A stretch of 64,000 nucleotides of DNA, taken from an uncultured Alphaproteobacteria bacterium. Its GTDB lineage: Bacteria; Pseudomonadota; Alphaproteobacteria; UBA9655. The stretch spans positions 9,094 to 73,093 of the forward strand of contig CAYRHD010000007.1 of NCBI GenBank assembly GCA_964424065.1. Reading direction: 5' to 3'. A model generated the notes under the pieces. That model saw nothing but the letters and a program-made list of their open reading frames with translations. It was not told where the DNA came from and ran no database searches. The position numbers and the translations under genes were made by a program. Positions 39,856 through 54,612 of the stretch are shown piece by piece (within the stretch, counting starts at the first letter, position 1; each line of letters begins with the position of its first letter).

Positions 39856-39931
<76 letters not shown>

Positions 39932-40461
39932 GGGAACTCAAGGGTTTCTAAATCTCCGCGTTTCTCAAGCACACGTTAATTTTTTAAAGAAGCTTACGAA
40001 AGGATTTGCTAGTTAGACAAAGTTAAGTTTAACTATATCACATATAGCATTATTTTCCAATTGACGTTATTTTCGTTCTCTGCAAAAACTAGTCAAAATA
40101 TTACTGTTCATGGAAATGCTGCTATTAGTGGAAATGACAATAAAGTTGACAACGTCACAAATGTTTCAGGAGAATCAATCACCATTTTCTTCCAAATCTC
40201 GATAGCTAATTCTATATTAGCAGTACCACCTTATACAACTTAAGATGATCTCTCTTTGAAAATGACGCCATTTAAAATCTCTCATCATTCCTCCACAAAA
40301 AACTTCCACTTTACATTCATATCATTCCTATATTTTTGCAACAGAGCTATAAATTTTCTAAACGGTTATCTAATTTTCTTGATTTATTTTCTCTATAAGC
40401 TTTATATAAAAATATTATTTTTGGAGGATATGCATCTAAAATATAAATTTTTTGAGAGAGT

Positions 40462-41094
40462 ATGATAAAAAAAATCCCACGATGTGTTTTTTGTAATTTA
40501 GAAGAAAAATTGAAAATTTATGCAACAAAAAATTTTTTTGTTATATTTGATCCTTACCCTTTAGTTGAGGGACATCTTATCATAAGTTCAAAAGCACATT
40601 ATGGATGTTTAGGAGACTTACCTTATAATATGTTAGAAGAAATATTTATTTTAAAGGAAAAAGTCGCTAAAATAATTACAAAGGTTTACAGGAATGTATG
40701 CTTTTATGAACATGGGCGTGCTGGAGGGTGTTTACCAACAGACCCTAACAATCGTATGTGTCATCATTTACATCTTCATGCTATTCCTTTTTATGGCGAT
40801 ATAGTTAAGGATTTAGAATTAAAGTTTAAACCAGAAAAGCTAGACAATTTTTTTAAGGTTAAAGAATATTATGAAGGCCTTGGGGAATATCTCTATTTTG
40901 AAAATTCATTAGGTGAAATGATGTTTTATTCCGTTAATGAAGGAGATGTGCCTATGCATTATTTTAGAACATTGATTTCTAAGTACATAGGAAAACCACA
41001 TCTTGCCGACTGGTCCTTGTTTCCCCATAGAGACACATGTACATTAAAAACTGCTTCAAAAAAGATTCAGCAATATCATTATCTATTTGATTAG
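40462..41094 (+). CDS. HIT-superfamily protein with ~90-aa C-terminal extension
   Basis: 210 aa with CVFCN, EGHLIISSKAH and the histidine triad CHHLHLHAIPF. Confidence 0.7.
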   Translation: MIKKIPRCVFCNLEEKLKIYATKNFFVIFDPYPLVEGHLIISSKAHYGCLGDLPYNMLEEIFILKEKVAKIITKVYRNVCFYEHGRAGGCLPTDPNNRMCHHLHLHAIPFYGDIVKDLELKFKPEKLDNFFKVKEYYEGLGEYLYFENSLGEMMFYSVNEGDVPMHYFRTLISKYIGKPHLADWSLFPHRDTCTLKTASKKIQQYHYLFD

Positions 41095-41111
41095 GAGCAA
41101 TCTACATAAAT

Positions 41112-42263: not shown

Positions 42264-42341
42264 AATTTTTGTGAGATTATGGTAATAAAAATCTATATAA
42301 AACAGAAAGTTATTAACAAAGCCTTGCCAAAGAATTATTTT

Positions 42342-42355
42342 ATGTATAAATACAT
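42342..42355. promoter_or_regulatory. perfect inverted repeat ATGTAT-AA-ATACAT (operator candidate) 6 nt upstream of the XRE gene start
   Basis: The palindrome was read directly from the sequence. The same half-site motif recurs three times in the 49092-49438 divergent control region. Confidence 0.55.
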
Positions 42356-42360
42356 AAAAT

Positions 42361-42807
42361 ATGATAAAAATTGCTTCACAAATAAAAAATAGACTTCTTG
42401 AAAGAGGAATGTCAGCACATGCCCTTGAAAAACATGCTGGATTAAAGTCGAGCGCAGTTCAAAATATTCTTAATGGCCGATCGAAAAATCCAAGTATTAC
42501 TATTATTCAAGCTATCGCACAAGCACTTGACTGTAGTGTTCATGATCTTATTGGTGAAGTTTCTTATGAAAATAAGGATGATAATCCACAAATAAATAAA
42601 CTTTCTAGTTCTCCTTGGAATCTTGAACTTTATTTAGAGGTATTTGAAACTGTTACTTCTATTTTAAAAATTAAAAAAATTAACCTCTCAAAGGAAAAAA
42701 TTTTAGAAATTGTAGATGAAGTTTATTTATATGCTCAAAAAGGAAATCAAGATAAGCCTGATGCTCAATTTGCAATGTGGATTATAGAAAAATATATTAA
42801 ATTATGA
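42361..42807 (+). CDS. XRE-family helix-turn-helix transcriptional regulator
   Basis: 148 aa. The N-terminal ~65 aa have a Cro/C1-type HTH pattern (LLERGMSAHALEKHAGLKSSAVQNILNGRSKNPSITIIQAIAQAL). The C-terminal half has no recognised domain. Confidence 0.8.
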   Translation: MIKIASQIKNRLLERGMSAHALEKHAGLKSSAVQNILNGRSKNPSITIIQAIAQALDCSVHDLIGEVSYENKDDNPQINKLSSSPWNLELYLEVFETVTSILKIKKINLSKEKILEIVDEVYLYAQKGNQDKPDAQFAMWIIEKYIKL

Positions 42808-42849
42808 GTTTAAACAATAAATTCAAAAATTAAAAAAAATGAAACTTAT

Positions 42850-44577
42850 ATGAAATTTAAAAAATTATATATAAATAAAGATTATTTTACATTTTTATGT
42901 ACCCTTTTTTTTGCTTCAACATTACTCGTAGGTTTTTTTATTTATGATGCCTATCAAGCTCAAGTGACTGATAAACATAGAAGGTTACGTATCACTGGGA
43001 ATGAAATAGCTATAAATTTAGATGAATTTCTAACTCAAATAAGTGAAATTGTGCTTTCTTTCGGAAAACATATATCTTCTGGAAATACAACTCCTGTTCG
43101 GATAGCTAATGTATTAGGAAAAAAATCGGAAAATCATTATCCAACCGATTTTTTATCTAAAATAGATGCATCTTGGATTTCAAATAACGATTTTATGACT
43201 TTTAATAATCAGTATGGAGTTCTTGATAATCCCACAAATATGTCATTCCGCTCTTATGTTAAGGCTTGTAAAAAGGTTCCGTGGAAATTGCATTTTTCAA
43301 AACCCGCAGTTGGAACTCCTGGAGGATTATGGCAAATTCCGGCTGGAATGGGTATAACAGATAGCGAGGGTAAATACGTTGGAATTATTGCTATAGGGCT
43401 AAATATTGCTGAACTAAATAGCAAAATTCATCGAATTTCATTTGAAAGAGGAGTAAGTTTTGTCCTCTTAGATGATCAATATAGAATTATTCTACAGTCA
43501 CTTGATAATGAGCTTGATCCAAATAGTACATTTTATAGAGACTACTTTTCAGAAAACTCTTTGTTTTTAAATGATGAAGGAATTTTGAAAAATCCTCTAA
43601 TATATAAAGGAATAAATTATAGTTACTATAAGAAAATTAATAATTATCCTTATATATTGTTAATGGGATTTGATAATATTATTTTACAAAACGAATTAAA
43701 AAATAGCATCTTTCCTCATTTGATGGAGTTTGTTGGAATTGGAATTTTAATTTTAATTTTGTTCTTTCTATTTCATAAAAGAATTTTAAAACTGTCGCAA
43801 TTATCTCAAAAAACCCGAGAATCTTTTACTCATCAATTAAAATCTGACATGGATGTCTTTATTAATACAATAATCGCGTATAGCGCCATCATAAAAAAGT
43901 ATTACAATGGCGAGATTGAGGTAGGAGTTGATGAAAAGAGACTTAGAGACTTAATTGAAGAGATATTCCAGAGTGCTTTGAATCTTAGAGTATTTACAAC
44001 TGATTTTCTTAATTTTAATTATGTGTGTGTCAATTCAATTATTAATGAAGTTATAACTATGCAATCTCAAAAACTCGCAATAAAAAACATTAAAGTGAAA
44101 ACTTCTTTAATTAAGGAGCTTCCTCGACTTTGGGCAGATGAACTTCGGCTAAAGCAGATTTTAGGAGGGTTAATATCCCTGAGCATTAAATGTACACAAA
44201 AAAAGGGATGTATGAAAATTATCAATCATTTAAGCGAGGAAAATTCAAGTAATACCTTATATATAATTATCGAAGATAATGGTTTTACTCTCGATGAAGA
44301 TGATTTTGAGCGAATAGATAAGAAGTCTGATTGCGACCTTTTTAAAAATGATATATACGGTTTGGGCCTTGAATATCCAGCTATTAAAGAATTGGTTAAA
44401 CTTCATAGTGGATGCATAAAAGTTGAAAGATTAGAGAAAAGAGGGAAAAAGTTTATTCTTACGTTCCCTTACATTAATCCTTCTCTACGAATGAATGGCA
44501 TGCTCAATAATTCCAAATTGCAAGAGTCTCAAGTTCTTCAAATGTTCAAAGATAGTCAAACAACTTCTATTTCATAG
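42850..44577 (+). CDS. membrane sensor histidine-kinase-like protein (Cache-like extracytoplasmic domain; degenerate N box)
   Basis: 575 aa with two TM segments flanking a ~270-aa extracytoplasmic domain. It has an H-box-like FTHQLKSDMD, a G1-like EDNGF and a G2 YGLGL. The N box reads GGLISLSIK, so both conserved Asn residues are missing. Confidence 0.65.
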   Translation: MKFKKLYINKDYFTFLCTLFFASTLLVGFFIYDAYQAQVTDKHRRLRITGNEIAINLDEFLTQISEIVLSFGKHISSGNTTPVRIANVLGKKSENHYPTDFLSKIDASWISNNDFMTFNNQYGVLDNPTNMSFRSYVKACKKVPWKLHFSKPAVGTPGGLWQIPAGMGITDSEGKYVGIIAIGLNIAELNSKIHRISFERGVSFVLLDDQYRIILQSLDNELDPNSTFYRDYFSENSLFLNDEGILKNPLIYKGINYSYYKKINNYPYILLMGFDNIILQNELKNSIFPHLMEFVGIGILILILFFLFHKRILKLSQLSQKTRESFTHQLKSDMDVFINTIIAYSAIIKKYYNGEIEVGVDEKRLRDLIEEIFQSALNLRVFTTDFLNFNYVCVNSIINEVITMQSQKLAIKNIKVKTSLIKELPRLWADELRLKQILGGLISLSIKCTQKKGCMKIINHLSEENSSNTLYIIIEDNGFTLDEDDFERIDKKSDCDLFKNDIYGLGLEYPAIKELVKLHSGCIKVERLEKRGKKFILTFPYINPSLRMNGMLNNSKLQESQVLQMFKDSQTTSIS

Positions 44578-44578
44578 A

Positions 44579-47500
44579 TTAAGGTTGGTACCTACAAGCT
44601 TTCAGTTTTAGAAGAGATTCTTGTATTCCTTTTTTATCTTTTAGTTCAGTTAAGAGCTTATTAGCTTTTTGAAAATGGTGTATGGCTTTTTCTGAATGAT
44701 TTTCTAGAAATTCTAACTCACCTAATCCTAAGAGCGTCCTTCCTTCTCCTCTTTTATTATTTAATTGATTAAAAATAGAAAGCGCTTGTTGGTAGGCAAT
44801 ATGGGCTTCTTTAAAATTTCTTTTCTTAGTAAATAAATGGCCAAGTTCTCTTAATGTATCCCCTTCGTGAATTAGATTTTCTCTAAATTTAAAAAGATCT
44901 AAAGCACGATTTAAAAAAATCATAGCTTGTTCATAATGAGCTGAATTTGCCTCTAGAATGCCTAACTTTTGCCATACAATTCCTTCAAGCAATGTATCAT
45001 CTTGTTGCTTGAACAGTTGTAATGCTTCTTGAAAATATAACTGAGCTTCATAATTTTTTCCTTCTCTTACTTTTAAAAGGCCAAAGTCTAATTTCGTCTT
45101 AGCGATCTCTATGCTATTATTGATTTTCTTTGAAAGTGATAGGGCTGAATTATAAAGCATTTCAGCCTGATCGTAATGTTCCATTTCCTGGCGGAGTGTA
45201 GCTTCTTCTCTTAAAACTTTGACTTTACCTTGTATGTCTCCGATGCTTGTATAAATTCTATTAGAGTTGTCATAAAGCTCTTCGGCTTTTTGAAAATCAG
45301 AAAGTAAATACTCCAAACGTCCTAATCTTCGTAATGAATCCGCTTCTCCTTTTCGATCATTTGTTTGCCTAAAAATTGTTAAAGCTTGATTATAATAATT
45401 TCGGCACTCATCGAAGTTATCTTGATAAAATGATATGCTTCCTAAACTAACAAGAGCTTTAGCCTCTCCCACTTTGTGTCCAACTTTTTTGCAAAGTTCC
45501 AAACTTCGCTCATAAGATTTTTGAGCATTATTATAGTGGTTGCTTTCTTCTTCAATAAGACCTAAGGTCCTGCTGACTTCAATTTCTCCCCATTTATGAT
45601 TAATGGTTGTAAAAAGAAGCAATGCTTGATCGCAGGTTGTACGCGCTCTTCCATAATTCCCTAGAGTTACATCCAGCTTACATAAACTAAATAAAGTTTG
45701 GGCTTCTACTTGTTTTTCTCCAATTTCCTTTGATAGAAGGAATGCTTGTTCTAAGGAATCTCTGGATTTTTCGTACTCTCCTAATGAGCCTTCTATTTCT
45801 CCTAAATCTCTTAACGCTCTTGCCTCGTTCCGCTTGTTTCCGAGTTTTTTGAAAGATTTAATAGATGTCATATAAATATTTATTGCTTCATCATAATTAT
45901 TTAAGTTTCTTTCTAGATCAGCTTGTTCTAAGATTAATTCTGATATTCCACTCGCATATTTAATTTGTTTTGATAGAGTAAGGGCCTCGGTAAGTAGTGT
46001 TCTTGCTTTTGTGAAGTTACCAATTCTGCGATTGACTTCAGCTAATGCCAAAAGAGAATTTGATTGTCCTGACCGTTCACTCAGGTCTTTATATAAACTT
46101 ATGGCAGATTCAAAAAGTAAAATGGCTTCCCAGGTAAGCCCTTCACGTGAATTGATGTGTCCTAATCCTTCTATCGCGTAAGCCATACACCATTTATTTC
46201 CGATGTTCTTCGCAAGAATAAGTCCTTGCTCGTAGTTACTACGAGCTTTACGAGAGTTGCCTAGAAGTCTGTTAATATCACCCATGAATGACAAAGTCTT
46301 ACTTTGATATTCTTTATTTTTAATTTTGCAAAAAAGAACATAAGCTTGATCAGATAACTCTTTACTTTTTTCGTAGGAACATAATTCTTTCTCGAGTTTT
46401 GCAAGTCCTAATAATGCCTTGGCTTTATAATATACGTTATTAATATTATTTGAAATGGATAAAGAATTTTTATAATATGTTCGAGCTTCATTATAATTTC
46501 CATGTATGCGATTAATGCCTCCTAATCCTAATAAAGAAACTGCTTTAATTTCGGAGTCCTTGCATTTTTCAGAAATGGAGAAAGCTTTTTTAAAATAATC
46601 AAGAGATTCTTCGTAATTATTGACATATGTCTCTAATTTTCCTAAGCCAAGATAAACAACAGCTTCAAGTTTATTAGAAGAACCATTTTCTTTACTCATT
46701 GATTTTAATTTTAAAATAGCATTTCTATAAAGATCTCGAGCCTGATTATATCTCCCTACAGCTGTCATTAAATTTCCATAATCAATAAAAACCTTAAATT
46801 CTCCAAGTGGATTATGGATATCGGTAAAATATAAAAATGCCTTTTCAAAATTTGCTTCGGCTTCATTATAATTTGATAGTAAAAAATTTAAGCGACCAAA
46901 ATAATACAGAGAGTCAGCTATTCCATTAATATCATTTATTTTTTTAAATAATTGAAGGGCTTGTTCAAAATATATTTGAGATTCTTCGTAATTACCTAAC
47001 TTCATCTCTAATTTGCCCTTTGCTTTTAGAATTTTAGCCTCGCCACGTATGTCTTTTGTTTCCTTAAACAGAAAATGTGCTTGATTAAAAGCTGTTAGAG
47101 CTTGTTCATAATGACCTAATTTAGCTTCTAAGTTACCAATTCCTTTTAGTACGGCTCCTTCTTGAACTCGGGATCCTTCCTTTTTGAAAATTGTGAGGGC
47201 TTTCTCATAATCCTCGCGAGCTTCCTCATTATTGCCAGTTAATTTTTTTATATAAGCGAGCCCATTTAAAGCTGTAGCTTCCCCTTTCTTATCATCTAGC
47301 TTTTTAAATAAAAAAATTGCCGAAAGATATGATTCAGCAGCTTTCTTAAAGTCACTATATCTTTCTAAATCTCCTTTCTTTAATAATACTTGCGCTTGCC
47401 CGTCGAAATTATTAATTTTTTGAAAATGTGAATAAGCCTTTTCGTAAAGTTCCTTACATTTTTCAAAATGTCCCAAATAATATTCAGTTTGGCCTAAATC

Positions 47501-48103
47501 TGATAATGTTCGAGCAATTCCTTCTTTATCATCTAATTCTTCGAAATAGTTAAGAGCTAAGCTATAATTTCGCATAGCTTCAAGGAGGTGACCAAGAAGA
47601 CGCTTGCTCGTACCAATGCCGCATAATGAATAAGCTTCCCCTGTTTTTTCTTTTTCTTGTTTAAAAATATCAAGAGCTTTTTGATAATTTATGCTTGCTT
47701 GTTCGAAAAAATTTTTATTTCTTTGTTTTTCAGCTAAATAAAATAGAAGTTTTCCTTCTTTACACCTTTTTGAAATATTACCTTCGCATAGTTTTATATC
47801 AGGTTTATCATTCGAAAGTTTCGGATCAAAGGCGTTACTTAGAATGATTGAAGCGGAAGAGGATAGTTTTTCATTTATGGGAGATAGTATATTTTTTTTG
47901 TCTAGGTAACAAGAGAAATATAAGTAACTTATAAAAATGAGAGTTATTAAAAATAAACTACCTAGCCAAAATATGTGCTTTTTATTTTTAGGATTTTTAT
48001 AAAAAAAATAAACTAAACATAAGATAAATATGAAAGAAAAAATTGACAAATAATACAAACCGACATTGTTAAATAAAATTTTTTGAAATTTGTTGAAATC
48101 CAT
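44579..48103 (-). CDS. membrane-anchored tetratricopeptide-repeat protein
   Basis: 1174 aa with two N-terminal TM helices, followed by about 26 consecutive ~40-aa TPR-like units (recurring ...G.A...LG......G.Y..A...YE.AL.I....D..GEA...). Confidence 0.85.
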   Translation of the reverse strand: MDFNKFQKILFNNVGLYYLSIFSFIFILCLVYFFYKNPKNKKHIFWLGSLFLITLIFISYLYFSCYLDKKNILSPINEKLSSSASIILSNAFDPKLSNDKPDIKLCEGNISKRCKEGKLLFYLAEKQRNKNFFEQASINYQKALDIFKQEKEKTGEAYSLCGIGTSKRLLGHLLEAMRNYSLALNYFEELDDKEGIARTLSDLGQTEYYLGHFEKCKELYEKAYSHFQKINNFDGQAQVLLKKGDLERYSDFKKAAESYLSAIFLFKKLDDKKGEATALNGLAYIKKLTGNNEEAREDYEKALTIFKKEGSRVQEGAVLKGIGNLEAKLGHYEQALTAFNQAHFLFKETKDIRGEAKILKAKGKLEMKLGNYEESQIYFEQALQLFKKINDINGIADSLYYFGRLNFLLSNYNEAEANFEKAFLYFTDIHNPLGEFKVFIDYGNLMTAVGRYNQARDLYRNAILKLKSMSKENGSSNKLEAVVYLGLGKLETYVNNYEESLDYFKKAFSISEKCKDSEIKAVSLLGLGGINRIHGNYNEARTYYKNSLSISNNINNVYYKAKALLGLAKLEKELCSYEKSKELSDQAYVLFCKIKNKEYQSKTLSFMGDINRLLGNSRKARSNYEQGLILAKNIGNKWCMAYAIEGLGHINSREGLTWEAILLFESAISLYKDLSERSGQSNSLLALAEVNRRIGNFTKARTLLTEALTLSKQIKYASGISELILEQADLERNLNNYDEAINIYMTSIKSFKKLGNKRNEARALRDLGEIEGSLGEYEKSRDSLEQAFLLSKEIGEKQVEAQTLFSLCKLDVTLGNYGRARTTCDQALLLFTTINHKWGEIEVSRTLGLIEEESNHYNNAQKSYERSLELCKKVGHKVGEAKALVSLGSISFYQDNFDECRNYYNQALTIFRQTNDRKGEADSLRRLGRLEYLLSDFQKAEELYDNSNRIYTSIGDIQGKVKVLREEATLRQEMEHYDQAEMLYNSALSLSKKINNSIEIAKTKLDFGLLKVREGKNYEAQLYFQEALQLFKQQDDTLLEGIVWQKLGILEANSAHYEQAMIFLNRALDLFKFRENLIHEGDTLRELGHLFTKKRNFKEAHIAYQQALSIFNQLNNKRGEGRTLLGLGELEFLENHSEKAIHHFQKANKLLTELKDKKGIQESLLKLKACRYQP

Positions 48104-48188
48104 AAAAAATCCTTTAAATTTTTATAAGATAATTTTATTCATTATTATTTTTTATCTGGTTGATTTAGCGGATTATTTTATAACCCTA

Positions 48189-49091
48189 TTACTGTGAATC
48201 CGTATTTAATTTTATATTTTTCCTATTCTTTTTTATAAGTTGTCCACAACCCCCCTCAACATCTCGTCCTCTACTTATTTGTAGAATTGTATCTAATCCT
48301 TTTTTAGCTACGATATTCTTAAACTCATAAGCAAATTCATCTGATACTCTTTGATAAGGAAGTCCAATTGTAGGATTGTATAGTTGTATTTGAGCTTCAA
48401 AGTAGCGTGGATCAAGTAAATTTGCGAAATCTATAGCATGCTGCTGTGTATCATTAATTCCTTTAAGTAAAAGATATGTGGCCTTTACATATCCATTTGT
48501 TTTTTTAGCATATTCTTTGCATGCTTCTATGGCTGATTCAATGGAATATTTTTGTGTTATTGGCATAATCTTTGTTCTTTCTGCATTGTATGGGGAGTGA
48601 ACAGAGAGATAAAGCTTAAGTCTTATATCTAAAGATAAGTTTGCTAATTCATATATACGGTTAGATATCCCAACCGTTGAAAGACTCATTCTATTAAGGT
48701 AAGGGAACTTTTCTTGAACGACACCAAGAAATGTGCATATATTATTATAATTCTTTAAAGGTTCACCCATTCCCATCAATGCAATGTTAAAGGCTGCGTC
48801 ATCTTTTTCTATCTCGTTTTTCACGATATCTTTTACAATTAGATCAACTTGTTCGAGTATTTCTTCTGGAGTAAGATTAGCAAAAAAGCCACCATGTCCA
48901 GTAGCGCAGAACTTGCATCCCATAGCACATCCTGCTTGAGACGAAACACAAATACGATATTCTTCAAAAGCTATCCCATTATTTGGTGGAAGGCGAAAAT
49001 ATATTGATTCAAATAAATTTCCTTCTTGGTTTTTGAATGCATATTTGATGCTTCCATCAGAAGATATTGATTTATTAATTATTTCAAGCAT
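48189..49091 (-). CDS. RlmN/Cfr-family radical SAM methyl-synthase, lacking the N-terminal accessory domain
   Basis: 300 aa with ICVSSQAGCAMGCKFCATG (cluster CxxxCxxC plus the upstream Cys), MGMGEPLKN, SLSTVG and a C-terminal GGCGQL. It is collinear with E. coli RlmN from about residue 85 onward. An AGGAGAA RBS lies 7 nt upstream. Confidence 0.85.
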   Translation of the reverse strand: MLEIINKSISSDGSIKYAFKNQEGNLFESIYFRLPPNNGIAFEEYRICVSSQAGCAMGCKFCATGHGGFFANLTPEEILEQVDLIVKDIVKNEIEKDDAAFNIALMGMGEPLKNYNNICTFLGVVQEKFPYLNRMSLSTVGISNRIYELANLSLDIRLKLYLSVHSPYNAERTKIMPITQKYSIESAIEACKEYAKKTNGYVKATYLLLKGINDTQQHAIDFANLLDPRYFEAQIQLYNPTIGLPYQRVSDEFAYEFKNIVAKKGLDTILQISRGRDVEGGCGQLIKKNRKNIKLNTDSQ

Positions 49092-49110
49092 AGAGCCTTC
49101 TCCTAAACAT

Positions 49111-49138
49111 ATAATCTATAATCTATAATCTACAATCT
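49111..49138. repeat. heptamer tandem repeat (ATAATCT x3, then ACAATCT) in the divergent control region
   Basis: Read directly from the sequence. It creates phased TATAAT hexamers at 49110, 49117 and 49124 on the + strand and lies 20-50 nt upstream of the radical SAM start codon. Confidence 0.85.
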
Positions 49139-49313
49139 ATAAAATGTAAAATCCCCAACATTATGATCCTTCTTACCAAAAGTTATTTTTGAATAGCTAT
49201 AGACTTGTTCATTTGTGTTCTAATCATTAAAGATATGTAGTTTTTTATAAAGTGGTATGTTGAGAGATCTTTCCCTCGTTCTCGTAACTTCTAAAATTTC
49301 TTTTTATAAAATT

Positions 49314-49327
49314 ATGTATAAATGCAA
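49314..49327. promoter_or_regulatory. operator-like motif ATGTAT-AA-ATGCAA
   Basis: Same half-site and spacing as the palindrome at 42342. Confidence 0.45.
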
Positions 49328-49336
49328 AATTATCTA

Positions 49337-49365
49337 TTGACCATTCGATACGATTATGTATTTAT
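49337..49365 (+). promoter_or_regulatory. candidate sigma70-type promoter of the selD operon (TTGACC-N16-TATTTA)
   Basis: The -35 element lies at 49337-49342 and a -10-like element at 49359-49364. The -10 element is embedded in operator-like motif 49356-49369. It lies about 75 nt upstream of the first ORF. Confidence 0.35.
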
Positions 49366-49369
49366 GCAA
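49356..49369. promoter_or_regulatory. operator-like motif ATGTAT-TT-ATGCAA
   Basis: Same motif family. It overlaps the candidate -10 element. Confidence 0.45.
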
Positions 49370-49413
49370 AAGACAATGCTTTTATCGGTTAGCCCGATTT
49401 AAAAGACAAAAGT

Positions 49414-49427
49414 ATGTATTTATACAA
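49414..49427. promoter_or_regulatory. operator-like inverted repeat ATGTAT-TT-ATACAA
   Basis: Near-perfect palindrome directly abutting the AAGGAAG ribosome-binding site of the 67-aa ORF. Confidence 0.5.
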
Positions 49428-49438
49428 AGGAAGAAAGA

Positions 49439-49642
49439 ATGAAGATTCGTTTAATTAGAACAAATGCAACAACAGCACATCTAGGTGCGATTCAAAAGAT
49501 CAACGATATTCAGTTTCAGGATATTTATGATGTGGATGACAAAAAAGCTAAAGGCTTAAATTTAAAATTCGGCGCAATCCCTGCTAGGGACTTAAAAAAT
49601 ACAATTACCAATTCACAAGAAGTATACTTTAAAGGAGAATAA
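49439..49642 (+). CDS. small hypothetical protein (67 aa), first cistron of the selD operon
   Basis: A good RBS (AAGGAAG) lies 6 nt upstream. Its stop is 1 nt before the next start, and its last codons (GGAGAA) supply the next gene's RBS. It faintly resembles a degenerate Rossmann N-terminus of Gfo/Idh/MocA type, without the Gly motif. Confidence 0.5.
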   Translation: MKIRLIRTNATTAHLGAIQKINDIQFQDIYDVDDKKAKGLNLKFGAIPARDLKNTITNSQEVYFKGE

Positions 49643-49643
49643 A

Positions 49644-50963
49644 ATGAATTTATTAAAAATAAAATCTATTTCTATTTTTTTTGCTAAAATGTTCTATATT
49701 TGCTTTTGTTGGGCCAATGATGATCTTGATATTGAAGCATTAGCATCTCTAACAAAAAATCTCAAATCTTTAGAGATTAATCATAAGAATTTCAATGAAT
49801 TAAAAGATATAGAAGGGATTATCCTTATAGGATCGAGTGGAGCAGGGAAAACAACTTTGCTTAATGAAATACGAGAAAAATGTAGAGGAGTTTCAATTCC
49901 AATAAGATTTATTACAAGACCCTTAAGATTAAATGAAGATGATGATGAAAATACTCATATTACAAAAGAACAATTTGAGGAAAAGCTTAAAAATGGAGAG
50001 ATTTCTTTTGCTTGGACTAGAGGATTTGAAAATGACCGTAAAGAATATTACGGATTTGAAAATGCCTCGAATGGTTTTCCAATTTATTCAGCAAATAATT
50101 CATTCTTTTACTCTGAAACAGGGTTTGCAAATTTTAACCATCTCATTATAAGCGTGTACGCTCCGGATGAAATACGTCAACATCGCCTTGCTTTGAGATC
50201 GCCAGATTTTGCCCTAGGAGAATTTAAAATCAGAGTAGAAGATCCTTATAAGGATGCTAAAAATTTCGCCCATGTCGTCGTTCATAACTATGGAGATTTT
50301 GAAAACCGATCTTCTAAATTTGACCTTGTAACCTTTATTAATGCTTTGAAAGTTATTAAATCTGGATGGGGCAGAATCAGAGACCTTAATAATCATAGGA
50401 TTGAATACCGTGCCCGTCTTTTTGATATTATGACTCATGATGTTGAATTTTTTGGTGGTGAGAGGAAAACTTTCCAATATGCTAGGAGAAGTCCTGGAGT
50501 TCGTGTTCTTGCAGAGCAAAATGGCAAATTTCTAATTACGGCAGAATGGAGAACCGAAATAAGTGGATGGGATTTCAGGTTACCTGGTGGTAAATGCTTT
50601 GAAAATACAGAAGAGTATGCAGATTATTTAAAAAAATTTGGCAAAGATTTTTTGCCAGAAAAGGGGATAGATTCTGCGGTTTTAGAACTAAAAGAAGAAT
50701 GTGGGCTTACACTAAAAAAAGAGGACGTAAAGCATTTTGCTACCTCAAAGTGTGGGGCTACCGTTGATTGGGATTTATATTACTATTTTACTGAACTTAC
50801 AGATACATCTAATGATTACTCCCATACATCTCCAGAAGGTGAAAGAACTTTATCATTATGGTTGCTTCCTGAAGAAGTCCTAAATCTCTGTTTTAATGGC
50901 AGCATAAGTGAAGATCGTACGGCAGCTACTCTCATGCGCTTTTTTTTAAACTCAAAAAAATAG
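49644..50963 (+). CDS. fusion protein: PhnN/guanylate-kinase-like P-loop kinase plus Nudix hydrolase
   Basis: 439 aa. The N-terminal half has the P-loop GSSGAGKTTLL, then IRFITRP...ENTHITKEQFEEK...ISFAWTRGF...YYGF, which is collinear with PhnN (ribose 1,5-bisphosphokinase). The C-terminal half has a Nudix-like box, LPGGK...AVLELKEECGL. The N-terminal 25 aa are hydrophobic. Confidence 0.7.
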   Translation: MNLLKIKSISIFFAKMFYICFCWANDDLDIEALASLTKNLKSLEINHKNFNELKDIEGIILIGSSGAGKTTLLNEIREKCRGVSIPIRFITRPLRLNEDDDENTHITKEQFEEKLKNGEISFAWTRGFENDRKEYYGFENASNGFPIYSANNSFFYSETGFANFNHLIISVYAPDEIRQHRLALRSPDFALGEFKIRVEDPYKDAKNFAHVVVHNYGDFENRSSKFDLVTFINALKVIKSGWGRIRDLNNHRIEYRARLFDIMTHDVEFFGGERKTFQYARRSPGVRVLAEQNGKFLITAEWRTEISGWDFRLPGGKCFENTEEYADYLKKFGKDFLPEKGIDSAVLELKEECGLTLKKEDVKHFATSKCGATVDWDLYYYFTELTDTSNDYSHTSPEGERTLSLWLLPEEVLNLCFNGSISEDRTAATLMRFFLNSKK

Positions 50964-50970
50964 GTGAACT

Positions 50971-52023
50971 ATGAATACAGTTACTTTAACTAACTTATCG
51001 CAAGCCGGTGGATGCGGATGTAAACAGCAAGAAGACACACTTTCAGAAATTTTATGTTCTCTAAAACAAGATTTCATAAATCCTGCTGTTATTGTTGATT
51101 TTAAAAATAGTGATGATTGCGCTGTTTATGATTTAAATGAGGAGGAATATCTCCTTATGACAACGGATTTTTTTACTCCAGTAGTTGATGATCCTTACGT
51201 CTATGGAGTTGTTTCAGCAGCAAATGCTCTAAGTGATATATATGCGATGGGTGGTAAACCAATTATAGCAAATGCCATCCTTGGATATCCACGAGATCAA
51301 ATAACTGCCAAAGATCTAGAGCAAATTCTTCGAGGAGGAACCGATACTTTAAATAGTTCCAATTGCAGTATTGTAGGTGGTCATACAATAGAAAATCCTC
51401 AACCATTCTATGGGTTTACCATTCTAGGAACTGTTAAGAAAACTAACTTGAAAAAGAATATTGGAGCTCGGGAAGGGGATCTTTTAATTCTGACAAAGCC
51501 TCTTGGAGTTGGAATCTATTCAAATGCATTGAAGTTAGGATTATTAACAGATGAGTTATATAATTTTATGCTACCCCATCTTATGAAGGTAAATACGGAA
51601 GGTTTTGATCTTGGATTTCTCTCAAGTATTCATAGTATGACAGATTTAACAGGATTTGGGCTGATTGGACATGCTTTAGAACTTTGTCAGGAAGCAAAGC
51701 TATCACTTGAGCTATTTTACCACAGAATCGATTTCTTCCCTCAATTAGAAAATCTAGTGGGAGCTGTCACATCGCCAAATAGTGGAGTTATGAGAAATTA
51801 CCACAATTATAAAGATAAAATTAAGATTAGAGAAGTTAAGGAAGGTGAAAATCTTGATAAACTCTTACCCTTATTTGATCCTCAATCTAATGGTGGACTT
51901 TTGCTATCCATTGAAGAAAAGGATTTAAAGCAAGTTTTAAAAATTGTTGGACCACAAGCTAGAATTATTGGGCGATTTGTAAATAGAAGAACACAAGAAA
52001 CTCCAATTGTAATTGGAAAATGA
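50971..52023 (+). CDS. selD: selenophosphate synthetase (selenide, water dikinase), Cys-type
   Basis: 350 aa. LTNLSQAGGCGCKQ matches the SelD active-site loop (E. coli LTQYSHGAGCGCK). DDCAVYDL, TTDFFTPVVDDPY and SDIYAMGGKPI follow in order, as in SelD. Confidence 0.9.
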   Translation: MNTVTLTNLSQAGGCGCKQQEDTLSEILCSLKQDFINPAVIVDFKNSDDCAVYDLNEEEYLLMTTDFFTPVVDDPYVYGVVSAANALSDIYAMGGKPIIANAILGYPRDQITAKDLEQILRGGTDTLNSSNCSIVGGHTIENPQPFYGFTILGTVKKTNLKKNIGAREGDLLILTKPLGVGIYSNALKLGLLTDELYNFMLPHLMKVNTEGFDLGFLSSIHSMTDLTGFGLIGHALELCQEAKLSLELFYHRIDFFPQLENLVGAVTSPNSGVMRNYHNYKDKIKIREVKEGENLDKLLPLFDPQSNGGLLLSIEEKDLKQVLKIVGPQARIIGRFVNRRTQETPIVIGK

Positions 52024-53234
52024 TGACCATGTTACATAAAAATCATTCTAAAATTAGATGCTTATTTCCTGCTTTAAAAGATGGAACGGTTTATCTTGAC
52101 AATGCAGCAACGACTTTGAAGCCAACGCCTGTCATTGAGAAACTTCTTGAGTATTATCAAGAATATCCAGCAAACGTGCATAGAAGTGCCTATAAAATGG
52201 CAGAAAAAGCAAATTTGGAATATGAAAAATCACGGTGTTTAGTTCAGAAATTTATCAACGCGATTTCTCCAGAAGAAATTATTATTACAAGAGGCTCAAC
52301 TGAAGCGATAAATCTAGTTGCACTTTCTTGGGGTGAAGAAAATATAAAGCAAGGGGATAAAATCCTTATCTCTATTTTAGAACATCACTCAAATATTCTT
52401 CCTTGGGAAAAACTTGCTGAGCGTAAGAGTGCTCAGGTTAATTATATTCCTGTTACACCTCAAGGTGATGTAGATTTAGAAAGTTTTCAAAACCTTTTAG
52501 ATAGCAAAGTTAAGCTTATTGCTATTACAGGTGCATCTAATGTTATTGGAACTTTAGTTCCTTTAGAGAAAATCATCTCTCTGGGGCATTTACATGGTGC
52601 AAAAGTATTAGTTGATGCTGCTCAAGCTGCAGCTCATGTATCTATTGATGTGCAGCAACTTAATTGTGATTTTCTTTGTTTATCCGCGCATAAGGTATAT
52701 GGAGCAACAGGTATTGGAATTTTATATGGAAAACGTTCCTTATTAGAGAATATGCCTCCAGTTATTTATGGGGGAGGGATGGCTGATAGACTCCGATTGA
52801 ATGGTGCTGGTTATGAATTACCTCATAAGTTTGAAGCAGGTACACCTCCAATAGCTAGTTTTATTGCTTTTGGTGCTGCTATTGAGTTTATTCAAGCTTT
52901 AGGATTTGAAAGTATATGTAATTATGAAGAAGAGCTTTTCGAACACTTCTGCAAGGAATTACATAATATCCCTGAAATAAGCATTCTTGGTGCTCCTCAA
53001 AAGAGGATCGGGGTTTGCTCTATTTTAGCCAAGAATATTCATGCCCATGATCTAGGGACTCTACTTGATGATTATGGAATTGCTGCAAGAGTTGGGCACC
53101 ATTGCGCATCTCCCCTCATGAAACATTACGGGGTTTCATCTACCCTTAGAATCTCTCTTGGTATTTATAACAATTTAGAAGATATAGAAAAGACAATTTA
53201 TGCATTAAAACGAATAGTGGAGATGTTCAAATGA
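52020..53234 (+). CDS. sufS: SufS-type (group II) cysteine desulfurase / selenocysteine lyase
   Basis: 404 aa with LDNAATTLKP, ANVHRS, LEHHSNILPW, the PLP lysine in LSAHKVYG and the catalytic Cys in RVGHHCASPL. It is collinear with B. subtilis SufS. Its start overlaps the selD stop. Confidence 0.88.
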   Translation: MMTMLHKNHSKIRCLFPALKDGTVYLDNAATTLKPTPVIEKLLEYYQEYPANVHRSAYKMAEKANLEYEKSRCLVQKFINAISPEEIIITRGSTEAINLVALSWGEENIKQGDKILISILEHHSNILPWEKLAERKSAQVNYIPVTPQGDVDLESFQNLLDSKVKLIAITGASNVIGTLVPLEKIISLGHLHGAKVLVDAAQAAAHVSIDVQQLNCDFLCLSAHKVYGATGIGILYGKRSLLENMPPVIYGGGMADRLRLNGAGYELPHKFEAGTPPIASFIAFGAAIEFIQALGFESICNYEEELFEHFCKELHNIPEISILGAPQKRIGVCSILAKNIHAHDLGTLLDDYGIAARVGHHCASPLMKHYGVSSTLRISLGIYNNLEDIEKTIYALKRIVEMFK

Positions 53235-53692
53235 ACGTAACTGATACTTCAAAACTTTATCAAGAAACCATTCTTGCTTTTAATAAAAAGCCTTTGAATT
53301 ATGGCATTATTCAAGGGAACAACTGCAATATGGCCGAATGTCACAATCCACATTGTGGTGATACGGTTAAACTTTTTATAACCTTTTCAACAACAACTGT
53401 GCCCACCATTAAGCAAATTAGCTTTTATGGTGAAAGCTGTGCTGTTACAAAAACTTCTGCATCTTTGATGACAAAAAAATTAAAAAATAAGAATTTAACT
53501 CAGACTGGGAAGTTAATTTCTAGTTTTTACTCTCTTGTGGAGAATTCTTCTTCTGATGATCAAACTGAAGAGAATGAGCTAGGTGAGCTTAAAATTTTTA
53601 GTTCTCTTAGCCGCTTTCCGTCTCGGAAAACATGCGCATTGCTACCGTGGAAGGCTTTAGAACAACTCACTTATGCGTTTGTGAAAAAATGA
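53231..53692 (+). CDS. sufU: SufU-type sulfur/selenium acceptor scaffold
   Basis: 153 aa with the three SufU cysteines in context (NPHCGD, GESCAV, RKTCALLPWKALEQ). Its start overlaps the sufS stop in an ATGA. Confidence 0.85.
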   Translation: MNVTDTSKLYQETILAFNKKPLNYGIIQGNNCNMAECHNPHCGDTVKLFITFSTTTVPTIKQISFYGESCAVTKTSASLMTKKLKNKNLTQTGKLISSFYSLVENSSSDDQTEENELGELKIFSSLSRFPSRKTCALLPWKALEQLTYAFVKK

Positions 53693-54612
53693 ATTTTATT
53701 ATAGCAGCAGGTTACAAATACACAGACGTGGATGTTTTAGCTTCTAGTATTGCGCTTAGAGAATTAATGCATCTTCAAGGAAAAAAAGCGGATATACACC
53801 TAACAGGACCATTTAATGCATCAATTCCAAGTAGATTTATTGATAGTGTGACTGAGTATGTAAATCGAACAGTTCTCTCAAAACTATCAGAATGTAATTT
53901 TATTCTTGTAGATATTTCTAATCCTGATTATGTCGATTCGTTTGTAAAAATAGACAAGGTATGCGCAGTCTATGATCATCACTTTGGATATGAAGAATTT
54001 TGGGCGAGACGCATAGGAGTCCAAGCAAAGATTGAACCAATAGGGGCGTGTGCCACTCTTATATGGGAAGAATTTAAGACTTATAATTTTCATAAGAAAA
54101 TTTCTTCTTTAGCAGCTAATCTTCTTTATACAGCGATTATCTCCAACTCTCTAAATTTTAACGCTCAAGTTACTTCCTTACGAGATAAAACAGCAGCAAA
54201 AGAAATCCTTAACTACGTTACACTTCCTGAAAATTGGGCTAAAGAGTATTACAGAGAAGTTGAGAATCATATATTTCAGAATTTACCTAATTGCATACAA
54301 AACGATACAAAAATAATTTCTAAATCTCATTTGGATTTTTTGTTTAGCCAATTAGAAATACATGATCCTAAAAGTCTTATGAAAAAATATAATGTTCATA
54401 AAGAGATGGATCGTATTTTTCCAAAAAGAAATTGGCTTCTTAATTTAATTAGTATTAAAGAAGGGAATAGTTATTTATTTACTAACTCAGAAAAAATAAG
54501 AAATATGTTGGAACAGGTTATTCCGGTAATAAGAAAACCCTCCTTCTCAAAATCCAAAACAGTATGGTTGCGTAAAGAAATACTAGGATTGATAGAGAAG
54601 GTGAATTCATAA
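53689..54612 (+). CDS. DHH-family phosphoesterase (family II pyrophosphatase-like, divergent metal ligands)
   Basis: I place the start at the ATG at 53689, which overlaps the sufU stop in an ATGA; the track ORF begins at 53632. Motifs appear in order: YKYTDVDVLASS (DxD), ILVDISN, VYDHHFG (DHH), PIGACATL and AIISNSLNF. Family II PPases have H, DHNE and SDT at three of these positions. Confidence 0.65.
   Translation: MNFIIAAGYKYTDVDVLASSIALRELMHLQGKKADIHLTGPFNASIPSRFIDSVTEYVNRTVLSKLSECNFILVDISNPDYVDSFVKIDKVCAVYDHHFGYEEFWARRIGVQAKIEPIGACATLIWEEFKTYNFHKKISSLAANLLYTAIISNSLNFNAQVTSLRDKTAAKEILNYVTLPENWAKEYYREVENHIFQNLPNCIQNDTKIISKSHLDFLFSQLEIHDPKSLMKKYNVHKEMDRIFPKRNWLLNLISIKEGNSYLFTNSEKIRNMLEQVIPVIRKPSFSKSKTVWLRKEILGLIEKVNS

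Follow-up and report, generated by a model that had tools for sequence, protein, structure and literature searches.

A candidate selenium-utilization cassette that links SelD to a kinase-Nudix fusion and a pyrophosphatase-like protein in an uncultured alphaproteobacterium

A 64,000-nucleotide stretch of DNA from an uncultured alphaproteobacterium (the whole analyzed stretch is called the window here) encodes the selenide, water dikinase SelD in an operon with a kinase-Nudix fusion, SufS, SufU and a DHH protein. Which use of selenophosphate could such an operon serve? A sequence-only reading had proposed a new selenium-utilization pathway, and we analyzed the operon, its surroundings and its counterparts in other genomes.

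Layout of the operon and its genomic island

As that reading had claimed, six closely spaced genes lie on the plus strand at 49439-54612; the first two junctions are gaps of 1 and 7 nt, and the other three are ATGA overlaps:

49439-49642, +, 67-aa ORF, preceded by AGGA; coding status uncertain
49644-50963, +, kinase-Nudix fusion, 439 aa (profiles, AlphaFold model, homologues)
50971-52023, +, SelD, selenide, water dikinase, 350 aa, Cys form with GGCGCK (TIGR00476, NF002098)
52020-53234, +, SufS-type cysteine desulfurase/selenocysteine lyase, 404 aa, HHCASPL cysteine loop (TIGR01979)
53231-53692, +, SufU, zinc-dependent persulfide (or perselenide) acceptor of SufS, 153 aa, CGD, C and C motifs (TIGR01994)
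53689-54612, +, DHH/DHHA2 protein, family II pyrophosphatase paralogue, 307 aa (match to 1k23)

The last gene was called from 53632 in the ORF list; we chose the ATG at 53689, which fits the homologues. The 67-aa ORF matched no Pfam or NCBIfam family and has no homologue at any related locus, and was therefore excluded from the conserved unit. Thus, of the proposed six-gene unit, five genes stand as a conserved core.

The operon forms the right-hand part of a low-GC island, which ends with it and begins directly 3' of a tRNA-Lys gene:

39856-39931, +, tRNA-Lys (CTT), left edge of the island (ARAGORN, Rfam; GC falls right after it)
39932-54612, low-GC island, 14.7 kb, carrying the whole system (GC, GC3)
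40462-41094, +, HIT-superfamily protein with HHLHLH motif, first island gene (weak Pfam matches to CwfJ_C_1, DcpS_C and HIT)
41112-42263, +, second class-V PLP enzyme, EF2568/SclA-like, putative selenocysteine lyase (TIGR01977)
42341-42356, palindromic operator-like site TATGTATAAATACA, directly 5' of the XRE gene
42361-42807, +, XRE-type HTH regulator, candidate regulator of the operon (Pfam HTH_26, HTH_3)
48189-49091, -, RlmN/Cfr-like radical SAM methyltransferase with its N-terminal domain missing, divergent from the operon (TIGR00048)
49313-49428, three operator-like sites (at 49313, 49355 and 49413) in the 347-bp radical SAM/operon intergenic region

The GC content of the island is 0.32 versus 0.42 outside, and GC3 is 0.13-0.29 in every island gene versus 0.30-0.41 in the flanking genes. 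No integrase or att repeat was found for the island, and the 3' end of the tRNA-Lys gene is not repeated within the window. We interpret the operon as a horizontally acquired, mobile cassette. The motif TATGTATWWATRCA has only four sites in the 64 kb (0.2 expected by chance) and is common to the site upstream of the XRE gene and the upstream region of the operon; this shared operator-like motif points to the island's own XRE protein as the probable regulator of the operon.

The second PLP enzyme scored 446 bits with TIGR01977 (cut-off 377) and 336 bits with the SclA model NF040779, under its cut-off of 525; the EF2568 family is a probable selenocysteine lyase (Haft and Self 2008). The radical SAM protein reached 238 bits with TIGR00048 (cut-off 290), covering profile positions 70-350 of 355. 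At other loci, the TPR, histidine-kinase-like, radical SAM and HIT genes of the island are not conserved partners of the cassette.

Protein families of the cassette and known selenophosphate consumers

The window SelD scored 324 bits with TIGR00476 (cut-off 125) and 325 bits with NF002098 (cut-off 299). It aligns with E. coli SelD over the whole length, keeps the GGCGCK loop, and has the catalytic Cys, Lys and Asp intact. It falls in a distinct clade of approximately 30 SelD clusters, and a drop in bit score separates this clade from ordinary SelDs. SufS (TIGR01979, 497 bits; cut-off 475) and SufU (TIGR01994, 105.5 bits; cut-off 92.5) also exceeded their curated thresholds, in agreement with the proposal that the three proteins constitute a module from selenium mobilization to selenophosphate. 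Judging from family membership and conserved active-site residues, SufS with SufU can draw selenium from selenocysteine, and SelD can convert the resulting selenide to selenophosphate.

The fusion protein consists of a hydrophobic N-terminal helix, a P-loop kinase domain (approximately residues 55-240) and a Nudix domain (approximately residues 250-439) whose Nudix box contains an inserted helix. Among curated profiles, the kinase domain matched PhnN best (TIGR02322; E 1.5e-9), along nearly the full length. Since the score of 37.8 bits is far under the cut-off of 156, a PhnN orthologue is ruled out and the domain is best described as PhnN/guanylate-kinase-like; its closest solved structures are guanylate kinases. 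Pfam called the Nudix domain in several homologues but not in the window fusion. In an AlphaFold model (pLDDT 84.7), however, this part matched ADP-ribose and NDP-sugar pyrophosphatases, with Foldseek E values down to 1e-11 and target-normalized TM-scores up to 0.79. Hence, among the profile assignments of the sequence-only reading, SelD, SufS and SufU passed their cut-offs and PhnN and Nudix did not, while the description of the kinase as PhnN-like and of the Nudix domain as ADP-ribose type was borne out by the best profile match and the structural matches. The Nudix box of the window protein has Leu at the canonical Arg position and a long insertion, which counts against the function proposed below.

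The DHH family profile matched the B. subtilis pyrophosphatase (PPase) 1k23 over its full length (E 1e-41), and the cassette protein keeps D13, D15, D75, H97, H98, K205, R295 and K296, with 61 bits for NF003877 (cut-off 283). Throughout the family, H9 is replaced by Tyr or Ser and D149 by Asn; this loss of two canonical metal ligands likewise counts against the function proposed below. The PPase-like character of the DHH protein and its replacement by a family I PPase at other loci fit the suggested role at a PPi-releasing step.

The sequence-only reading had also stated that the established selenophosphate consumers are lacking from the window. Of the 58 window ORFs with 90 aa or more, 43 were scanned with Pfam or NCBIfam. 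This set took in all ORFs of 300 aa or longer, apart from a 392-aa protein (37903-39081, read as a membrane transporter) and a 1174-aa TPR protein, to which a PADLOC scan was applied. SelA, SelB, SelU, YqeB/YqeC and SenA/SenB were not detected among the 43 ORFs, nor was a tRNA-Sec in the 64-kb window, so the SelD can be called orphan for the window. Similarly, neither known consumers nor tRNA-Sec were present in 13 SelD-linked loci scanned for tRNAs.

Recurrence of the SelD linkage in other genomes

The five-gene core (kinase-Nudix, SelD, SufS, SufU and DHH) was found in at least 10 diverged lineages, across which the fusion protein is 37-74% identical. Kinase and Nudix occur as kinase-Nudix fusions, as Nudix-kinase fusions and as separate adjacent genes. 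In a survey of 67 non-redundant Nudix loci with approximately 428 kb of flanking DNA, the commonest neighbours were PPase-like DHH proteins (11 loci) or family I PPases (6 loci), and SelD (9 loci). The window itself, L093, L094 and the 58-kb P0009 contig are additional SelD-linked cases, and L095, L096 and the P0194 contig were located via SelD itself.

Altogether, SelD adjoins the Nudix family in four architectures, three of which lack SufS/SufU. The linked SelDs all pass TIGR00476, come from different SelD lineages and, with E. coli and Aquifex SelD as references, are polyphyletic. Those of L021, L040 and L089 share 53-57% identity with E. coli SelD and may be general-purpose enzymes, with SelA or SelU among the consumers they supply. 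In L040, a SufE-like gene lies directly 5' of the kinase, Nudix and SelD genes. L096/L097 carry a PhnN-like kinase, SelD, SufS, SufU and a different Nudix in a 15-gene co-directional cluster, together with inositol-3-phosphate synthase, short-chain dehydrogenases, kinases, a phosphatase and an MFS transporter; this cluster looks like a small-molecule pathway.

The linkage of selD to kinase-Nudix and DHH genes, chosen in advance as a test, thus holds across many genomes and several independent architectures. Evolution has repeatedly brought SelD together with three partners: a kinase of the PhnN/guanylate-kinase-like kind, a Nudix of the NDP-sugar/ADP-ribose type and a pyrophosphatase-like enzyme. 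Since this partnership recurs in many unrelated uncultured bacteria, it probably reflects an undescribed use of selenium; in the literature searched, no paper described the cassette or SelD together with Nudix. Most Nudix loci, with or without kinase and PPase, have no SelD nearby, which argues that the core chemistry of the module is not selenium-specific. In summary, the gene identities, the SelD linkage and the lack of known consumers in the window partly support a new selenium-utilization pathway, but not an exclusively selenium-related role of the module.

Proposed function, alternatives and known systems

Our preferred reading, with a rough probability of 0.5, is that the cassette underlies a new SelD-dependent trait, the production of a small selenium-bearing metabolite derived from a sugar or ribosyl phosphate. 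The Nudix domain would cleave a nucleoside-diphosphate sugar or an ADP-ribose-type compound to NMP and a sugar phosphate, and the kinase would phosphorylate the phosphate of the latter to a diphosphate, much as PhnN phosphorylates the 1-phosphate of ribose 1,5-bisphosphate to yield PRPP. Selenophosphate or selenide could then displace the diphosphate to give a selenoglycosyl or selenoribosyl phosphate, in parallel to SenB chemistry with PPi instead of UDP as the leaving group, and removal of PPi by the DHH enzyme would pull the reaction forward. That none of the cassette proteins is an evident C-Se bond-forming enzyme counts against this proposal.

The main alternative, possible if rather doubtful, is that SufS, SufU and SelD supply a SelU or SelA whose gene lies in another part of the genome, and that the kinase-Nudix and PPase-like enzymes only recycle nucleotide by-products near the AMP-forming dikinase (NDP-X or ADP-ribose to NMP, NMP to NDP, PPi to Pi). 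This would agree with the occurrence of the module mostly without SelD, with the guanylate kinase structures nearest to the kinase domain, with one representative protein in which the Nudix is fused to a PEP-utilizing (dikinase-type) enzyme, with the ordinary E. coli type of some linked SelDs, and with a consumer scan that covers the 64-kb window of a larger genome. However, to our knowledge the characterized SelD systems require no kinase-, Nudix- or PPase-type helpers, the linkage exceeds chance more than 100 times by a rough estimate and was assembled several times, and the L096 cluster is biosynthetic in appearance. Furthermore, the genes that adjoin or overlap selD typically encode consumers or serve selenium delivery (Kayrouz et al., preprint).

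It is unlikely that the Nudix, kinase and PPase-like enzymes instead degrade a selenium-bearing nucleotide or sugar from a host or the environment, with selenium freed via SufS/SufU and reactivated by SelD. The source appears, from the names of related proteins, to be a Holosporales-like endosymbiont dependent on host metabolites, Nudix and PPase enzymes are hydrolytic, and the island contains a second, SclA-like lyase; but a diphosphate-building kinase misfits a purely degradative route, SufS/SufU are mostly absent from the SelD-linked architectures, and we know of no such substrate. We consider it very improbable that SufS/SufU act in iron-sulfur cluster assembly or thiolation with a SelD homologue that handles sulfur or is a passenger. 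Both are canonical iron-sulfur cluster components, and sulfur roles have been proposed for some SelD-like proteins (PMC4210487), yet SufBCD genes are not nearby, SufS/SufU are dispensable in other SelD-linked architectures, and the window SelD exceeds both SelD equivalog thresholds with its catalytic residues intact and scores nothing on the SelD-related sulfur family. Finally, islands gather unrelated cargo, as the nonconserved TPR, histidine-kinase-like, radical SAM and HIT genes illustrate, but a chance juxtaposition is effectively refuted: 10 or more diverged lineages have the identical gene order, stop and start codons overlap, and the two domains are fused both ways.

The proposed route to a selenium-bearing sugar- or ribosyl-phosphate metabolite can be compared with several known systems. 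The selenoneine (sen) cluster comprises SenC (a SelD), the selenosugar synthase SenB, and SenA (Kayrouz et al. 2022, preprint). As in the cassette, SelD is co-operonic with nucleotide-sugar chemistry enzymes, and the proposed attack of selenophosphate on an activated anomeric carbon would copy SenB. In contrast, the cassette has no SenB (TIGR04348) and no SenA/EgtB homologue, its activation would use a PhnN-like kinase and a PPi leaving group, and it has Nudix, a PPase-like DHH protein and SufS/SufU instead. In the orphan-SelD cluster of Enterococcus faecalis and Clostridioides difficile (SelD, EF2568/SclA, YqeB and YqeC), which serves selenium-dependent molybdenum hydroxylases (Haft and Self 2008), SelD likewise lies beside a NifS-like selenocysteine lyase, and the island described here holds a TIGR01977 member. 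However, the window has neither YqeB/YqeC nor a molybdenum hydroxylase, and the lyase adjacent to its SelD is SufS with SufU.

With ADP-ribose/NDP-sugar pyrophosphatases (NudF, NudE, NudK, NUDT5, Bdellovibrio Bd3179 and B. methanolicus ACT), the cassette Nudix shares the fold and the Nudix-helix glutamates, but the identity is only 16-18%, the Nudix box has an inserted helix of approximately 20-30 residues and Lys or Leu in place of Arg, and the proline signature of ADP-ribose pyrophosphatases is missing. In L066 and L089, the Nudix family stands beside a NadM-like nucleotidyltransferase, which recalls NadM-Nudix fusions. The DHH protein shares the full-length DHH+DHHA2 architecture, the PPi-binding Lys/Arg/Lys and most metal ligands with family II (Mn-dependent) inorganic pyrophosphatases, but differs at H9 and D149 and scores far under the curated cut-offs.

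PhnN, the ribose 1,5-bisphosphate phosphokinase of the C-P lyase pathway, converts an anomeric phosphate to a diphosphate and presumably shares an RxITR...ENxH motif with the cassette kinase, whose best curated match it is. Unlike PhnN, this kinase falls short of the TIGR02322 cut-off, is fused to Nudix and is not accompanied by phn genes. The tRNA 2-selenouridine synthase SelU (YbbB) also combines selenophosphate use with a P-loop domain and a diphosphate-activated intermediate (geranyl diphosphate). In contrast to SelU, the cassette has no rhodanese domain, none of its proteins matches the NCBIfam SelU model, and its enzymes resemble small-molecule enzymes.

Operon layout, selenium genes and genomic setting

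The DNA under study carries the following features:

49439-54612, + strand: six ORFs (67-aa ORF, kinase-Nudix fusion, SelD, SufS, SufU, DHH/DHHA2 protein)
53689-54612, + strand: DHH/DHHA2 protein, the last of the six
39856-39931: tRNA-Lys gene
39932-54612: low-GC island (14.7 kb)
40462-42263: HIT-superfamily gene and, after 17 nt, a TIGR01977 putative selenocysteine lyase, at the left end of the island
48189-49091, - strand: RlmN/Cfr-like radical SAM methyltransferase
42341-42356, 49313-49326, 49355-49368 and 49413-49428: TATGTATWWATRCA motif
13043-13202, - strand: 6S RNA gene (Rfam RF00013; 50 bits, gathering score 46.4)

The sequence-only reading had proposed a tightly packed six-gene operon for a new selenium-utilization pathway, and the ORF junctions (gaps of 1 and 7 nt, then three ATGA overlaps) bore out this arrangement. 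The DHH gene probably starts at 53689, overlapping the SufU stop, which fits its homologues of approximately 305 to 320 aa; the start given by the ORF finder was 53632. The 67-aa ORF, also counted as an operon member, is packed like the others, but no homologue of it was found in any related locus.

Each of the three proposed selenium genes scored above its curated HMM cut-off. SelD reached 324 bits with TIGR00476 (cut-off, 125) and 325 bits with NF002098 (cut-off, 299). It aligned over its whole length with E. coli SelD (3u0o), with matching GGCGCK loop and DDxAV, TTDFF, NAxSD and MTDxTGFG motifs, and its Cys-x-x-Lys loop and ATP/metal-binding aspartates are conserved. SufS, which was judged by TIGR01979, the PLP lysine and the catalytic Cys loop, scored 497 bits (cut-off, 475) and contains SAHK and HHCASPL. 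SufU, judged by TIGR01994 and by three Cys and an Asp as zinc ligands, scored 105.5 bits (cut-off, 92.5) and contains CGD, GESC and KTC. Family membership and conserved active-site residues support the view, put forward in the same reading, that SufS, SufU and SelD make up a complete route from selenium to selenophosphate.

The operon lies at the right end of the island, which opens directly after the tRNA-Lys gene and has a GC content of 0.32, compared to 0.42 outside; the GC3 of its genes is 0.13 to 0.29, versus 0.30 to 0.41 for the flanking genes. Neither an att repeat of the tRNA-Lys 3' end nor an integrase was found in the window. Besides the operon, the island carries the HIT-superfamily gene, an XRE regulator, a Cache/HATPase protein, a 1,174-aa TPR protein and the radical SAM enzyme. 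Furthermore, a second class-V PLP enzyme in the island passes TIGR01977, the EF2568/SclA-type putative selenocysteine lyase family, which was first noticed adjoining orphan selD. With the HIT gene it is a second selenium-flavored module; this pair was not found beside the cassette in other loci. The radical SAM protein, divergent from the operon, is without the approximately 70-residue N-terminal domain and keeps the CxxxCxxC motif and both catalytic cysteines. In the host metagenome-assembled genome, which is alphaproteobacterial, ribosomal protein S4 clusters with "Alphaproteobacteria bacterium 41-28" entries, and cassette homologues are labeled Holosporales.

The TATGTATWWATRCA motif occurs at only four places in the 64 kb, against a chance expectation of 0.2 matches. 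Three of the sites fall in the 347-bp region upstream of the operon; the fourth, a perfect palindrome, is 5 nt upstream of the XRE gene. This arrangement suggests that the XRE protein may regulate its own gene and the cassette, perhaps together with the divergent radical SAM gene. Scans for consensus promoters and terminators were uninformative, with counts no higher than in shuffled sequence, and no Rfam riboswitch or SECIS element was found near the operon. PADLOC returned generic matches only; therefore, this is not a known defense system.

The kinase-Nudix fusion and the DHH partner

The N-terminal half of the 439-aa fusion matched PhnN best (TIGR02322; 37.8 bits versus a cut-off of 156; E = 1.5e-9; profile positions 4 to 169 of 179). 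Guanylate kinase models also matched (TIGR03263, 33.3 bits versus 160; PF00625, 20.4 versus 25.2), a likeness of fold only. No phn C-P lyase genes were found in the window or in related loci. The earlier description of the kinase as PhnN-like was thus right as to the best match, but neither the score nor the gene context is that of PhnN; by its profile scores, the domain is a PhnN relative, not a PhnN member.

In Pfam (PF00293), a Nudix domain was not called in the window fusion itself and was called in several of its homologues. An AlphaFold model of the fusion built on 12 homologues (pLDDT, 84.7) has two domains, one guanylate-kinase-like and one Nudix. The solved structures nearest to the Nudix domain are ADP-ribose/NDP-sugar pyrophosphatases (B. 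methanolicus ACT, Bdellovibrio Bd3179, MT-ADPRase, T. thermophilus ADPRase, NudE, NUDT5 and NudK). Superfamily membership was judged by the fold and the catalytic helix [RK]E-x2-EE-x-GU, of which the glutamates E348, E351 and E352 are invariant. On both counts the domain is a Nudix hydrolase, and this half of the earlier assignment holds despite the silence of Pfam on the window protein. The Nudix box is split by an extra helix, most members have Lys and the window protein has Leu in place of the box Arg, and S-x-C/L/A-G occupies the position of the ADP-ribose pyrophosphatase Pro, approximately 16 residues downstream of the box. The window domain thus appears to differ from NudF-type ADP-ribose pyrophosphatases, which have the canonical 23-residue box and the downstream Pro.

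The conserved Cys of the S-x-C-G motif was considered as a selenium relay. Four SelD-linked lineages have Leu, Ala or Ser at this position, and Sec (UGA) variants were absent among the homologues examined, so the idea was dropped. Residues 1 to 29 of the fusion (49644-49730) form a hydrophobic start resembling a signal peptide or membrane anchor in Holosporales-like lineages (for example, MNLLKIKSISIFFAKMFYICFCWAN). This segment, seen in the window and in the homologues P0004, P0006, P0007 and P0014, is absent from other lineages with the same operon; export of an ATP-dependent kinase by such an N terminus would be odd.

The best matches of the DHH protein are Mn-dependent inorganic pyrophosphatases (NF003877; 61 bits versus a cut-off of 283), and an eight-member profile of its family matched B. 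subtilis family II pyrophosphatase over the full length (E = 1e-41). For family II, NF003877 and the ligands H9, D13, D15, D75, H97 and D149 were taken as diagnostic. In its alignment (A4), the family keeps D13, D15, D75, H97 and H98 together with the PPi-binding K205, R295 and K296, while H9 is Tyr or Ser (Tyr in the window) and D149 is Asn throughout. Unlike a family II pyrophosphatase, the DHH protein neither reaches the curated cut-off nor has the full metal-ligand set; as far as its residues tell, it is a pyrophosphatase paralogue with a remodeled metal site, not a canonical member.

Recurrence of the cassette and its SelD linkage

The kinase-Nudix fusion is rare, with 26 matches among 5.8 billion proteins. 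An exact look-up of the window fusion returned no matching record, tblastn against a plasmid collection gave no match, and a genome-contig scan with the fusion alignment, dominated by the P-loop pattern, yielded 3 weak loci only. Wherever enough contig was available, the kinase-Nudix form was followed by SelD, SufS, SufU and the DHH protein. This five-gene core is present in the 58-kb ENA contig of P0009, in the P0194 contig, and in the metagenomic or genomic loci L002, L006, L007, L008, L013, L014, L093, L094 and L095; identity of the fusions to that of the window ranges from approximately 37% to 74%. Of these, L006 belongs to assembly GCA_027328625.1 and L095 to GCA_021772275.1; JGI and ENA bins carry the cassette as well. 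The SelDs of the five-gene operons form a clade of their own (approximately 30 clusters), separated from ordinary SelDs by a drop in score from 316 to 282 bits. The radical SAM, HIT, histidine-kinase-like and TPR genes of the island and the 67-aa ORF have no conserved counterparts beside the cassette elsewhere. A conserved TPR/HTH partner was rejected: L002 and L095 have mutually related HTH and TPR genes nearby, but these are not relatives of those of the window. In L002, the same operon is followed by a tmRNA gene, another classic island insertion site.

Fusions in the reversed order (Nudix-kinase) also exist, and in the loci L021 and L040 the kinase and Nudix are separate adjacent genes. 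These permuted and split forms argue strongly for a joint action of the kinase and Nudix activities. Two proteins of 478 and 528 aa without a Pfam or NCBIfam match adjoin a Nudix-kinase and DHH pair in the locus L012 (3511-6608), the longer with a motif resembling that of PLP enzymes by eye (DDAQGGG...TAAKV).

With only the Nudix domain as query, 276 relatives were recovered from metagenomes, and 80 loci were fetched; neighbors were identified by tblastn with the window proteins and by clustering of neighboring ORFs, on a base of 67 non-redundant Nudix lineages with approximately 428 kb of flanks. A PhnN-like kinase was fused or adjacent in 22/67 lineages, and a pyrophosphatase-like DHH/DHHA2 protein was a neighbor in 11, SelD in 9 and family I inorganic pyrophosphatase in 6; no other family came near these counts. 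The finding of family I pyrophosphatase in the DHH position elsewhere argues for PPi, or a very similar compound, as the substrate of the DHH partner. Approximately one-third of bacteria use selenium (Peng et al. 2016). If a selenium-using genome carries approximately one selD, chance alone would place well under one SelD in these flanks, and the enrichment is, as a rough estimate, more than 100-fold. The linkage of selD to the kinase-Nudix and DHH genes across genomes, which the sequence-only reading had named as a check, was thus recovered, and SelD is linked to this Nudix family in four architectures:

Architecture 1: kinase-Nudix, SelD, SufS, SufU, DHH
Architecture 2: kinase, Nudix and SelD as separate genes; in L040 with a SufE-like gene in front
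Architecture 3: SelD, DHH, Nudix-kinase (loci L067 and L068)
Architecture 4: NadM-like nucleotidyltransferase, SelD, membrane protein, Nudix, second Nudix (loci L066 and L089)

All SelDs of the four architectures pass TIGR00476. In a quick neighbor-joining tree including E. coli and Aquifex SelD, the linked SelDs were polyphyletic: those of L021, L040 and L089 are E. coli-type (53 to 57% identical), that of L066 groups with Aquifex SelD, that of L067 is a deep branch, and those of the five-gene operons form the separate clade. The linkage was thus assembled, or SelD replaced, several times. The gene-neighborhood data support the view that SelD is coupled in evolution to the kinase/Nudix pair and a PPi-type hydrolase. 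In architecture 4 (L066, 3393-6911; L089, 170-3634), the NadM-like protein has GRFQPLHxGH, the membrane protein (approximately 290 aa) is without a family match, and the second Nudix is MutT-like; the two SelDs come from different lineages (36% and 53% identical to E. coli SelD, respectively).

The SelD of the related loci L096 and L097 stands at the edge of the operon clade (44% identical) and lies in a 15-gene codirectional cluster (L096, 1-13401). A PhnN-like kinase overlaps SelD and is followed by SufS and SufU, and a different, MutT-type Nudix lies just upstream; with this non-orthologous Nudix, the kinase/Nudix/SelD theme persists there. The cluster further encodes inositol-3-phosphate synthase, two short-chain dehydrogenases, an APH-type kinase, a phosphatase, an epimerase-like protein, a truncated archaeal-type SAM synthetase-like gene and an MFS transporter. 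From its gene content it looks like a small-molecule pathway, possibly one leading to a selenium-containing cyclitol or sugar.

In L040 (4910-7238), a PRPP synthetase gene, a tRNA-Leu gene and the SufE-like gene are just upstream of kinase, Nudix and SelD, and on the P0194 contig a LOG-family (Lysine_decarbox) gene comes after the cassette. Ribose-phosphate enzymes recur near the cassette, which may be chance.

Possible chemistry and known selenium traits

Orphan SelD genes have reportedly been an open problem since 2008, and to our knowledge very few C-Se bond-making enzymes have been characterized. The cassette offers a concrete, recurrent and compact five-gene target for this problem, which can be expressed and reconstituted. 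We put the probability that it represents a new SelD-dependent trait at approximately 0.5.

Nudix enzymes acting on NDP-sugars or ADP-ribose release NMP and a sugar phosphate, PhnN makes PRPP by phosphorylating ribose 1,5-bisphosphate at its anomeric phosphate, and PRPP-type donors lose PPi when a nucleophile attacks C1. Since these enzymologies point the same way, we propose that the Nudix domain would cleave an NDP-sugar to a sugar 1-phosphate, which the kinase would convert to the sugar 1-diphosphate. Selenophosphate or selenide would attack the latter to give a selenoglycosyl or selenoribosyl product and PPi, and the DHH enzyme would hydrolyze PPi and thereby pull the reaction. A new C-Se bond route of this kind, through a glycosyl diphosphate made by a PhnN-like kinase and leading to a new class of selenosugar, selenoribosyl or perhaps selenonucleotide metabolites in endosymbionts and other uncultured bacteria, is a tentative idea, less likely than not, and the specific reaction sequence is doubtful. 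If a selenium-bearing sugar, ribosyl or nucleotide metabolite is indeed made, this would be a new selenium trait, probably with new enzymology and possibly categorically new chemistry, and would mean horizontal acquisition of selenium metabolism by intracellular symbionts.

Alternatively, the cassette could supply selenium to, or otherwise support, a known consumer encoded elsewhere, which we regard as possible, though on the unlikely side. In line with this, the Nudix/kinase/pyrophosphatase module occurs mostly without SelD, some of the linked SelDs are E. coli-type, and P0177, a 700-aa homologue, is a fusion of a cassette-type Nudix to a PEP-utilizing, dikinase-type enzyme (phosphohistidine mobile and PEP-binding domains), so that a further phosphotransfer enzyme is joined to this Nudix family. 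However, a need for such a helper is not part of established knowledge, the linkage arose repeatedly, and the L096 cluster resembles a biosynthetic one. Even a mere support module would be a new and widespread Nudix/kinase/pyrophosphatase unit. Salvage of a selenium-bearing nucleotide or sugar that feeds SelD is improbable, and a role in sulfur or iron-sulfur metabolism, contradicted by the bona fide SelD, is most improbable. Chance juxtaposition can hardly be credited.

Known selenophosphate-dependent pathways are few, and the new trait we favor would be added to them. Those listed in reviews up to 2026 are selenocysteine, 2-selenouridine, the Se-Mo hydroxylase cofactor, selenoneine and ovoselenol. 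SelA, SelB, SelU, YqeB/C and SenA/B were not detected in the 43 of 58 window ORFs of at least 90 aa that were scanned, and for these ORFs the proposed lack of known consumers in the window holds. Scans for tRNAs in the window and in 13 SelD-linked loci gave no tRNA-Sec, and Rfam showed no relevant family in the window. The neighbors proposed in surveys of orphan SelD were limited to isochorismatase-like, ABC-ATPase and cysteine-desulfurase-like ones. The literature searched contained no paper combining SelD with Nudix and nothing relevant on PhnN with Nudix; an Actinomarina preprint and a Holosporales review were false leads.

In comparison with the Se-Mo hydroxylase trait, the window has an EF2568-type TIGR01977 lyase but not YqeB/YqeC. 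The cassette differs from the selenoneine/selenosugar trait, as neither SenB (TIGR04348) nor EgtB-like SenA is among the SelD neighbors in the window and related loci. The proposed C-Se step would mirror that of SenB, with PPi in place of UDP as the leaving group. All parts of the cassette belong to known superfamilies; together, they appear to form a SelD-centered selenium gene cluster with unprecedented partners.
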